Virus record (IMG/VR): IMGVR_UViG_2582580933_000012
Span: 1-6,371 of that record
From: a virus
Taxonomy: Duplodnaviria; Heunggongvirae; Uroviricota; Caudoviricetes
Reading direction: 5' to 3' (one strand)
DNA: 6,371 bases
How positions within the stretch are numbered: position 1 is the stretch's first letter; each line of letters opens with the position of its first letter. Shown one piece after another: positions 2,664 to 3,542 of this stretch. Under the pieces are notes generated by a model. It was given only the letters and a program-made list of their open reading frames with translations. It was not told where the DNA came from and searched no databases. The translations under genes and the position numbers were made by a program.

Positions 2664-3542
2664 ATGACGCAGCAACTCGAAAACATGCCAATAACAGAAA
2701 TCGAAATTGCCTACGGTGGAGAGGCATACGCAGATAATCAGATCGACGCGAAAACATTAGGCGAAGCCTTAACCTCTCTTAGTGCCCTGATTGAACACGC
2801 CGAAAAAATAATTAATGGCGAAACAGCAGAGCCGAAAGTCAACATCAAGGCAACAAAAGAAGGTTCATTTACTTTGCTTGTTGCTGTGATGGGGAGCATA
2901 AAAACTATTAACGCCCTTGGCCTCGTTGCAGGTGGTGGAGTTGCCGCAGGTGGCGTACTCGGGATAATCGAATGGCTCAAAGGGCGTAAAATCAGCTCCA
3001 TTGTCGTCGATGAACAAAAAGATACAGCAGAAATCGAAGTGGATGGTGAGAAGGTTAAATGCAGTAACGACATTCAAAAATTAATAACCAGTCCAATCAT
3101 CCGAAAAGAACTGGATAAATTAATCTATAAACCCCTGCAGACTGAAAAACCATCCACGTTCTCAGTTTCACAGCAGAAGCATAAGGTAGTCAGGGTGACG
3201 CAAGCTGAAGCAGTAAGTTTTAAAACTGCAAAATCCACCTTTGTCGAGAAAACGCACGTAACGACACGCCAAGCTAATGTACATTTTGCTAATGTTCGAT
3301 TCAAGCAAGGCAAAAGCTGGGATATCATCCTGCCAAATGGCGAAGAAGTTAGCGCATCTATGAAAGATGAGGCTTTTCTTGAACGGGTTGAACACAACCA
3401 AGCAGCATTCTGTAAGGGTGATCTTTTTGTTGTAGAACTGACAGAAACAACAAAAGAAACAAATGGCGCGCTGTCTAAACCACGCTATAGTATTACTAAG
3501 GTTATACGCCACAGAGCGGCGGCAGATAGGAAACTACTTTAA
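2664..3542 (+). CDS. Cassette gene A: hypothetical protein of about 292 aa with internal glycine-zipper hydrophobic segment, no recognisable family
   Basis: Long ORF ending at TAA 3540-3542. Preferred start ATG 2664 (SD AAGGA 8 nt upstream); the track start at 2631 is GTG without an SD. Hydrophobic Gly-rich stretch LLVAVMGSIKTINALGLVAGGGVAAGGVLGIIEWL; remainder hydrophilic. Confidence 0.8.
   Translation: MTQQLENMPITEIEIAYGGEAYADNQIDAKTLGEALTSLSALIEHAEKIINGETAEPKVNIKATKEGSFTLLVAVMGSIKTINALGLVAGGGVAAGGVLGIIEWLKGRKISSIVVDEQKDTAEIEVDGEKVKCSNDIQKLITSPIIRKELDKLIYKPLQTEKPSTFSVSQQKHKVVRVTQAEAVSFKTAKSTFVEKTHVTTRQANVHFANVRFKQGKSWDIILPNGEEVSASMKDEAFLERVEHNQAAFCKGDLFVVELTETTKETNGALSKPRYSITKVIRHRAAADRKLL

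Follow-up and report, generated by a model that had tools for sequence, protein, structure and literature searches.

What does a set of three genes do when it lies between the antiterminator gene Q and the late terminator of an Escherichia coli prophage, and reads against every phage gene listed around it? The set in question is found in IMG/VR record IMGVR_UViG_2582580933_000012 (Caudoviricetes), of which positions 1 to 6,371 were analyzed (this whole stretch of 6,371 nucleotides (nt) is referred to as the window). The window comes from a lambdoid prophage of E. coli and is 100% identical to the DNA of strains such as O80:H26 EC-107. The first of the three genes encodes a protein of 292 amino acids (aa), referred to as Protein A, and the other two encode the small Proteins B and C. 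We propose, with a probability of roughly 0.6, that the three genes form an anti-phage cassette that is carried by prophages and acts by abortive infection, with Protein A as its constant core; it would be a proteobacterial three-gene variant of the gp29/gp30 system of the mycobacterial prophage MichelleMyBell. The cassette and its parts are as follows.

2622..4184, no strand assigned: inserted cargo cassette of ~1.56 kb, bordered by the Q stop codon (4192) on one side and by the late terminator/tRNA region on the other
2589..2618, plus strand: candidate weak sigma-70 promoter, TTGCGT-18 nt-CATAAT, 8/12 matches, picked out by eye
2651..2655, plus strand: Shine-Dalgarno sequence AAGGA, 8 nt before ATG 2664, read from the sequence
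2664..3542, plus strand: Protein A, 292 aa, gp29-family core protein; open reading frame (ORF) and RefSeq coding sequence (CDS) WP_000193722.1
3546..3791, plus strand: Protein B, 81 aa, with an N-terminal transmembrane (TM) helix, a short beta-hairpin and a helix; phrog_27630, 8e-57
3792..4178, plus strand: Protein C, 128 aa, its start abutting the stop codon of B; phrog_26468, 6.7e-89

Protein A and the gp29 family

The evidence that carries this reading is the likeness of Protein A to gp29 along its whole length. When gp29 of MichelleMyBell (KF986246, 24382-25314, 310 aa) was compared with an alignment of 147 family members, hhalign gave a probability of 99.0% (E 4.5e-18) over 271 columns, from end to end, and the alignment covered the GSF motif, the small-residue loop with the hydrophobic helix, and the W, DE-FL-RV and V-x-x-HR positions toward the C-terminus. 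Pairwise BLASTP of Protein A and gp29 gave E 6e-5, with 26% identity over the last 87 residues. Protein A is a distant, full-length homolog of gp29. A Vibrio homolog carries the DefenseFinder label "MMB_gp29_gp30__gp29", assigned by its depositor, and a fold match of Protein A in BFVD came from the Cluster N mycobacteriophage Pipsqueaks.

The MichelleMyBell prophage system is described as one of abortive infection that blocks phage Tweety at a stage past adsorption and DNA injection (PMC6426606). It is reported to lower the plating efficiency of Tweety by 4-5 orders of magnitude and to be antagonized by Tweety gp54 (PMC8549241). Another source (PMC11856565) calls gp29 toxic and gp30 a putative membrane protein, and states that the mechanism is unknown.

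An exhaustive profile search returned 2,906 family representatives at 50% identity (E<=1e-3), nearly all of them full length at 280-315 aa, and the family alignment used downstream comprises 147 sequences. Family members keep a single architecture of ~290-310 aa; no alternative domain architecture was seen among the matches listed in a search for homologs of the N-terminal part only. The homologs are spread over phages and prophages of Actinobacteria, Firmicutes, and Proteobacteria, and also occur on plasmids.

Several catalogs hold such proteins under separate names. Protein A matched PADLOC PDC-S42 (PDLC05015) at E 3.3e-53, with residues 22-299 of a 303-aa form aligned to positions 4-294 of the 302 in the profile, NCBIfam NF053583 at 1e-66 (225.3 bits, cut-off 60), and phrog_3243 at 2.7e-94. 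Pfam DUF7946 (PF25678, gathering threshold 27 bits) gave no hit to Protein A of the window at E<=0.05 and hit 54 of the 147 relatives (best E 2e-8, covering residues ~14-187); the link of Protein A to DUF7946 runs through its homologs only. None of these four catalog entries, as returned, is linked to gp29. Judged by sequence, gp29, PDC-S42, NF053583, phrog_3243, and DUF7946 are five labels for one large family.

The product name attached to NF053583 is "LAPAL motif-containing putative phage structural protein". The LAPAL motif, which reads ELAPALLA in many relatives and stands at the start of helix 29-51, reads TLGEAL in Protein A. The "putative phage structural protein" part of the name is contradicted by the genomic contexts and is probably wrong, since homologs are found on plasmids, in defense islands, and in early or immunity regions, and are related to a defense protein.

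The gene itself is well delimited. An ORF of about 290 aa had been noted in a preliminary description of the window made from the sequence alone, and it is indeed present at 2631/2664-3542 on the plus strand, coding for 292 aa from the ATG. That description had left the start codon ambiguous; the question is settled in favor of ATG 2664, because AAGGA lies 8 nt upstream of it, RefSeq uses it (WP_000193722.1), and the N-termini of the close homologs, all of them 288-295 aa long, align to M1 of the ATG form. The alternative GTG 2631 has no comparable Shine-Dalgarno sequence, and the 11 extra residues that it would add are found in none of the close homologs. In comparisons with relatives that are 87-95% identical in protein sequence, the ratio of nonsynonymous to synonymous substitution rates (dN/dS) was 0.047-0.055 for A, 0.061-0.082 for B, and 0.044-0.060 for C. 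All three ORFs are under strong purifying selection.

Fold of Protein A and its hydrophobic segment

An AlphaFold2 prediction made with the 147-sequence alignment (model m87b449c9e9d4) reached a predicted local distance difference test score (pLDDT) of 92.2 and a predicted template modeling score (pTM) of 0.85. A prediction made with 23 close homologs was mediocre, and weakest across the hydrophobic stretch. The model of higher confidence has the following parts.

2691..2891, plus strand: N-terminal alpha/beta part, residues 10-76 (strand 10-19, helix 29-51, strands 58-62 and 70-76)
2868..2978, plus strand: hydrophobic Gly-rich segment, residues 69-105
2997..3221, plus strand: middle alpha/beta domain, residues 112-186 (three strands, two helices, two strands)
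3246..3515, plus strand: C-terminal OB-fold domain, residues 195-284 (b1-b2-b3-helix-b4-b5)

The N-terminal part holds an invariant-like GSF motif (G67, S68). The acidic character ascribed earlier to the N-terminus was borne out, with 11 Asp and Glu against 4 Lys and Arg in the first 64 aa. What had been described as a C-terminal domain of about 180 aa is, according to the AlphaFold2 model and the fold searches, two domains instead, a ferredoxin-like domain in which R147 and P157 are nearly invariant, and an OB fold in which W219 and F238 are invariant and D235 and V280 near-invariant, with RHR at 282-284 in close relatives. Searches of Pfam, NCBIfam, and the PDB, the last by sequence and by fold, gave no catalytic family and no enzyme relative, in agreement with the earlier remark that no catalytic motif could be recognized; the PDB sequence search gave no meaningful match either with the single protein or with the 147-sequence profile. 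As modeled, Protein A is made up of three domains, none of them enzymatic, and includes an OB domain and a hydrophobic hairpin.

The OB domain is also the ground for the main rival to our reading. In this rival the cassette is a defense system whose toxicity lies off the membrane: Protein A would act on nucleic acid or translation, by binding or sequestering single-stranded DNA, RNA, or tRNA of phage or host, with B and C as no more than an antitoxin-like restraint or a membrane tether, from which A is set free upon infection. The OB fold, with its invariant W219 and F238, is the best-conserved part of the protein, and its fold matches are IF1, eIF5A, SSB, PriB, RPA, and the anticodon-binding domains of the tRNA synthetases LysRS and AsnRS, besides the OB domains of Mpa. 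Some homologs, moreover, have no membrane partner at all, and lactococcal AbiP is a precedent for a membrane-anchored, nucleic-acid-binding abortive-infection protein. However, Protein A has no nuclease or other catalytic domain, and toxicity of this kind would leave unexplained both the conserved hydrophobic hairpin with its basic flank and the tight coupling to small TM proteins in Proteobacteria and in MichelleMyBell. We regard this explanation as unlikely, though it is the one that we take most seriously after our own.

The hydrophobic segment is conserved in position throughout the family. It had been placed at residues 80-115, which is the numbering from the GTG; the string quoted for it, LLVAVMGSIKTINALGLVAGGGVAAGGVLGIIEWL, corresponds to residues 71-105 when counted from the ATG. 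The Kyte-Doolittle mean over 19-mers peaks at 1.97, at residues 84-102. Of its earlier description as a glycine zipper, the hydrophobic, Gly-rich stretch stands, while the GxxxG motifs do not exceed chance: there are three, a count reached by 1060 of 5000 whole-segment shuffles in which the composition was kept (21%). Nor is the register conserved, the G...G...G pattern being present in 22 of the 147 family members, and the only conserved positions of the segment across them are G86 (97%) and a small residue at 97 (96%). The looser pattern small-xxx-small-xxx-small was seen in 109 of 147 members against 78 expected from shuffles; this excess is not counted as evidence, because small residues cluster in the loop and such clustering is lost in whole-segment shuffles.

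In the AlphaFold2 model the segment consists of a strand (70-76), a helix (79-85), a 12-residue loop of Gly, Ala, Ser, and Thr (86-97), and a second helix (98-105), which is amphipathic in many family members and is followed by a conserved basic motif, LKGRKI. The loop is the sole part of the model with pLDDT below 50; it varies from 2 to 30 residues in length and holds a charged residue in 40 of the 147 members. Insertion into the membrane was gauged on the Hessa scale as a simple sum over the best 19-mer, which gave +1.84 kcal/mol for Protein A and a family median of +3.90, with 1 of 147 members at or below 0. The corresponding sums were -0.53 for B (family median), +0.83 for helix 2 of C (median), and +1.01 for the phage 21-type holin of the window. 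The preliminary description had held that its membrane reading would fail if the stretch proved to be a core strand or helix of a soluble fold with a known enzymatic homolog; in the prediction part of the stretch is a strand of a soluble fold, but no enzymatic homolog was found. Because of the fold model and the insertion sums, a constitutive TM glycine zipper is not the conserved feature of the family. What the family members have in common is a hydrophobic hairpin in which small residues abound, flanked by a basic stretch.

This hairpin bears some resemblance to EACC1 (PF19953), which is described as a protease-activated pore-forming effector of ~107 aa (PMC7159879; bioRxiv 10.1101/2025.11.14.688446). 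The Pfam EACC1 hit to Protein A is sub-threshold (15.5-15.6 bits vs. 23.6, E 0.016-0.018) and places residues 81-140 onto model positions 42-102, which correspond to the toxic C-terminal fragment; hits were also obtained in 6 of the 147 relatives, the best at E 1.1e-3. In both proteins a hydrophobic helix carries a patch of small residues or Gly in its middle and is bordered on either side by beta-strands of one sheet. They differ in length (107 aa vs. 292 aa) and in that EACC1 is activated by a protease, whereas neither the cassette nor its immediate surroundings showed a gene for a caspase-like or other protease, be it in the window or in the proteobacterial loci that were inspected. Since the hit fails the Pfam threshold and the operon has no protease, the likeness is a lead only. 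A speculative and rather improbable extension of it is that gp29-family proteins are self-contained sensor-effectors across phyla, in which the EACC1-like hairpin would be a latent pore element, held in folded form on the beta-sheet of a soluble protein and freed by a ligand of the OB domain and not by proteolysis, and in which small membrane proteins that differ by lineage, gp30 in mycobacteriophages and B and C in Proteobacteria, would be interchangeable gatekeepers or nucleators of the pore. If true, pore-forming immunity in bacteria would have an activation logic that is new and open to direct study in E. coli.

Less likely still is that Protein A is a constitutive integral membrane protein, in which residues ~80-105 form a glycine-zipper TM helix and a channel arises when this helix oligomerizes, the acidic N-terminal domain being on one side of the membrane and the C-terminal domain on the other. 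The borderline hydrophobicity speaks for it (the Kyte-Doolittle maximum of 1.97, and a Hessa-scale sum not far from that of the holin), as do the three GxxxG motifs, the LKGRK residues as a positive flank, and the weak hit to EACC1 (E 0.016), a family with members that have a Gly-patch TM helix. The channel-forming TM helix of the preliminary description is nevertheless at odds with a confident model in which the stretch is a strand-helix-loop-helix within a compact multi-domain fold, and in which the N-terminal part and the domains that follow pack into one globule. It is also at odds with the insertion sums, which are unfavorable family-wide, with the charges and variable length of the loop, and with the often amphipathic helix 98-105. 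The GxxxG count reflects composition, in an unconserved register, and Protein A has no signal peptide to export an acidic N-terminal domain of 75 aa.

The cassette as an operon and as mobile cargo

Protein B starts 3 nt past the stop codon of A. Protein C opens with an amphipathic helix, continues with a TM helix that contains Pro-Gly and His (~residues 38-60), and ends in a C-terminal tail that is basic and coiled. About 60 loci were collected through look-ups of exact proteins and scans of collections, and the operon counts given here cover Proteobacteria. In 30 of the 31 loci scored, A is followed by a B-like ORF of 69-95 aa, which is strongly hydrophobic at its N-terminus and goes on with a beta-hairpin and a helix. 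A C-like ORF of 113-140 aa, in which a TM helix containing Pro is joined to a coiled tail of basic character, is present in all 27 loci with room for it downstream. The two small membrane proteins that had been noticed beside A, each with a strongly hydrophobic helix, are thus a conserved feature of the operon. Across loci, the start and stop codons of A, B, and C usually overlap or abut, and in Proteobacteria the three genes are probably co-transcribed. Gene B is unannotated in the RefSeq record of strain E2 and apparently in many other genomes too, where two hypothetical proteins are given.

The same triplet occurs on Pseudomonas megaplasmids, whose B and C matched the B and C profiles with probabilities of 93% and 97%, and in a small temperate element of Vibrio. 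On locus L076 and about 30 large Pseudomonas resistance megaplasmids of 370-500 kb, the three proteins have 308, 84, and 139 aa; in pR31014-IMP the triplet adjoins IS26, IS6100, and tet(C). A distant triplet (L072/L073; 302, 88, and 140 aa) is followed by an extra ORF of 150 aa and is divergent from the gene for a NACHT/STAND protein of 1,924 aa, which may be a defense-island neighbor or a functional partner. In Bifidobacterium Bbif-1 (L078, 2658-4029), BBP_0973 has no small TM gene downstream and is convergent with an ORF of 135 aa, whose HELIH motif suggests an ImmA/IrrE-like metallopeptidase; this ORF could be relevant to proteolytic activation, or may simply belong to the prophage immunity region.

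Homology of the phage backbone ends near 2613-2621 (H62, H85) and resumes at 4185 (H90, H110), which makes the cassette an insertion of ~1.56 kb that immediately follows the stop codon of Q. Its GC content is 41-45%, against 50-58% in the flanks. Matches of this stretch to phages are confined to 2400-2543, and in phage Evi Q adjoins the terminator region without a cassette. The exact cassette is present in 37-38 of 5,426 complete E. coli genomes. In strain HM670 (L080, NZ_CP082772.1, 1491-2777), in which Q is 95% identical, an AB5 toxin pair stands in place of the cassette. At the Q-holin site of this strain, the two proteins encoded are an ADP-ribosyltransferase related to scabin and an AB5 binding subunit of the subtilase family. 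The Q-holin interval is a cargo hotspot, as HM670 illustrates.

In the window, the cassette lies antisense between Q and the lysis genes. Elsewhere it was found between hok and DUF968 (other E. coli prophages), in the nin region of a prophage from Buttiauxella, next to tail genes or between them in further loci, in a Serratia element with primase and AlpA, on a MobA/MobL contig, and directly downstream of a cI-type repressor on the same strand, which is the position of rexAB in lambda (L021). Its neighbors are NERD, GmrSD, and a methylase at one locus and the 1,924-aa NACHT protein at another. In MichelleMyBell (KF986246), gp29 and gp30 lie between the lysis genes and the integrase/repressor, and the A homolog of Lactobacillus phage A2 likewise lies between lysis genes and integrase. 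The three genes travel together, between sites in prophages, plasmids, and defense islands that are unrelated to one another.

Cargo of this kind need not serve defense. The cassette might be a module for lysogenic conversion or host fitness (envelope stress, colonization), or an addiction module that stabilizes the prophage. The Q-holin site carries the AB5 toxin pair in HM670 and stx in Stx phages, the cassette stands beside hok in some prophages, and the tie of the proteobacterial cassette to phage resistance comes from homology, not experiment. Even so, we think that such a role is improbable, given the full-length homology to a protein of a demonstrated defense system, the candidate entry in PADLOC, the NERD, GmrSD, and NACHT neighbors, and a spread over phages of Actinobacteria, Firmicutes, and Proteobacteria and over plasmids that fits a conflict system better than a host-specific fitness factor. 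A phage structural protein or an accessory of the lysis cassette (a holin or antiholin regulator), as might be supposed from the NF053583 product name, the 0.8 kb that separate the cassette from the holin gene, and the small TM proteins B and C, is very improbable, since the late operon runs on the other strand and the cassette also turns up in early regions, next to repressors, on Pseudomonas megaplasmids, on a MobA/MobL contig, and within a defense island of a chromosome. It keeps no constant position relative to the lysis genes, and encodes in Protein A nothing similar to a virion protein by fold or sequence.

The ORFs of A, B, and C are tightly packed on the plus strand and antisense to all of the following phage genes of the window.

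4916-5965, minus strand: DUF968 gene
4532-4903, minus strand: RusA gene
4192-4551, minus strand: antiterminator Q gene, PF06530-type, stop codon at 4192
2089-2398, minus strand: four tRNAs
1582-1797, minus strand: phage 21-type holin gene
1263-1577, minus strand: YdfR/DUF1327 gene
674-1207, minus strand: lysozyme gene
210-692 and 272-457, minus strand: Rz and Rz1 genes

Some further observations concern this backbone. A strong intrinsic terminator hairpin at 2523-2543 on the minus strand, probably the late tR', is overlapped by a RefSeq "antiterminator" CDS of 36 aa (2456-2566, minus strand), which looks like a remnant or an annotation artifact, and positions 2536-2621 of the window match DNA from the 3' ends of Q genes of other prophages (H85). 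The tRNA cluster at 2089-2398 (minus strand) lies just downstream of the late terminator and comprises Gly-UCC, Thr-UGU, Lys-UUU, and a tRNA with a CAU anticodon, assigned to Met by ARAGORN and to Ile by RefSeq (the lysidine-modified Ile2 type). The codons that these four tRNAs read all end in A (GGA, ACA, AAA, AUA); per 1000 codons, the cassette uses AAA 64 times vs. 30 in the flanking phage genes, and ACA 22 vs. 9. DUF968 is accompanied by an ORF of 92 aa, both in the window (5967-6245, minus strand) and in other E. coli prophages (L005, 8616-8894), and in the latter a homologous cassette stands immediately upstream of this ORF.

Proposed role and comparison with known systems

On our reading of the cassette as an abortive-infection system, A, B, and C would be expressed in the lysogen from a weak promoter of their own, and read-through from Q during the prophage's own lytic cycle, being antisense to the cassette, would oppose that expression. 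Protein A may be cytoplasmic or peripheral, a sensor and a latent toxin in one. Its OB fold, with W219 and F238, would bind an infection signal, possibly a nucleic acid or a phage protein, and its Gly/Ala-rich helix-loop-helix (79-105) together with LKGRKI would engage the inner membrane or the TM helices of B and C. The two small proteins might restrain Protein A or supply its membrane site, and the triggered complex would damage the membrane, so that the infection is aborted. Of the sensor/effector or pore-forming role suggested in the preliminary description, a membrane-linked sensor/effector fits the homology to the toxic gp29 and is retained, whereas a glycine-zipper channel is not.

Several points weigh against this reading. 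Homologs of A without a membrane partner were found at locus L020, in Lactobacillus phage A2 (ORF19), and in Bifidobacterium Bbif-1 (BBP_0973), and gp30 has no detectable relation to B or C (profile probabilities of 0.3% and 0.9%). Because gp30 is unrelated to B and C and some homologs have no partner, a membrane part is not a requirement of the whole family. A consensus scan of the plus strand upstream of A gave no promoter above threshold; the candidate at 2589..2618 falls below it and lies in phage backbone DNA adjoining the insertion junction. Anti-phage activity has been shown for the mycobacterial system only, the E. coli cassette being known from sequence, and the toxicity of gp29 and the membrane nature of gp30 come from a secondary citation (PMC11856565). 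PDC-S42 is a candidate defense entry in PADLOC, and PDC-S42, DUF7946, the LAPAL family, and WP_000193722 find no mention in the literature searched.

The kind of system proposed here is already known, and a new principle is not demonstrated. What is new is that five labels are joined into one family across Proteobacteria, Firmicutes, and Actinobacteria, that the proteobacterial unit consists of three genes, the middle one often unannotated, and that the gp29 family is given a first structural outline, in which the predicted parts are an alpha/beta module that bears the hydrophobic Gly-rich hairpin, a domain of ferredoxin-like type, and an OB fold. A misleading structural-protein name, which is spreading through RefSeq, is corrected. 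The gp29/gp30 pair is an experimentally shown abortive-infection system that has hitherto been treated as mostly actinobacterial; the version in an E. coli lambdoid prophage brings it into a tractable host, in which the mechanism is accessible to standard genetics.

Other systems resemble the cassette in logic. Lambda RexA/RexB, Sbash gp30/31, and CarolAnn gp44/43 are described as prophage-expressed pairs of a cytoplasmic sensor of ~280-370 aa and a small membrane protein, which act by abortive infection (PMC6426606), and the cassette at L021 even occupies a rexAB-like position. The likeness is one of logic only: there is no similarity to RexAB in sequence or fold, a RexA-like (DUF4747) sensor and a four-TM RexB-like channel were not found, and the four TM helices of RexB belong to a single protein. 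There is no relation to the Tai system of tail-assembly inhibition. PADLOC lists PDC-S42 as a candidate of one gene, whereas the unit in Proteobacteria comprises three.

The closest counterpart is MichelleMyBell. Of the two proteins of the DefenseFinder system MMB_gp29_gp30, the gp29 homolog is present, and a gp30 homolog beside Protein A was not found. The two systems differ in host phylum and phage type, and in their membrane partners: MichelleMyBell has one of 67 aa with two TM helices (gp30), and the E. coli prophage has B (81 aa, one TM helix and a soluble tail) and C (128 aa, a TM helix and a coiled tail). They share a core protein that aligns over its full length with an identical order of motifs, a small membrane protein encoded immediately downstream of it, in overlapping frames in MichelleMyBell, and a place as prophage cargo outside the structural and replication modules.

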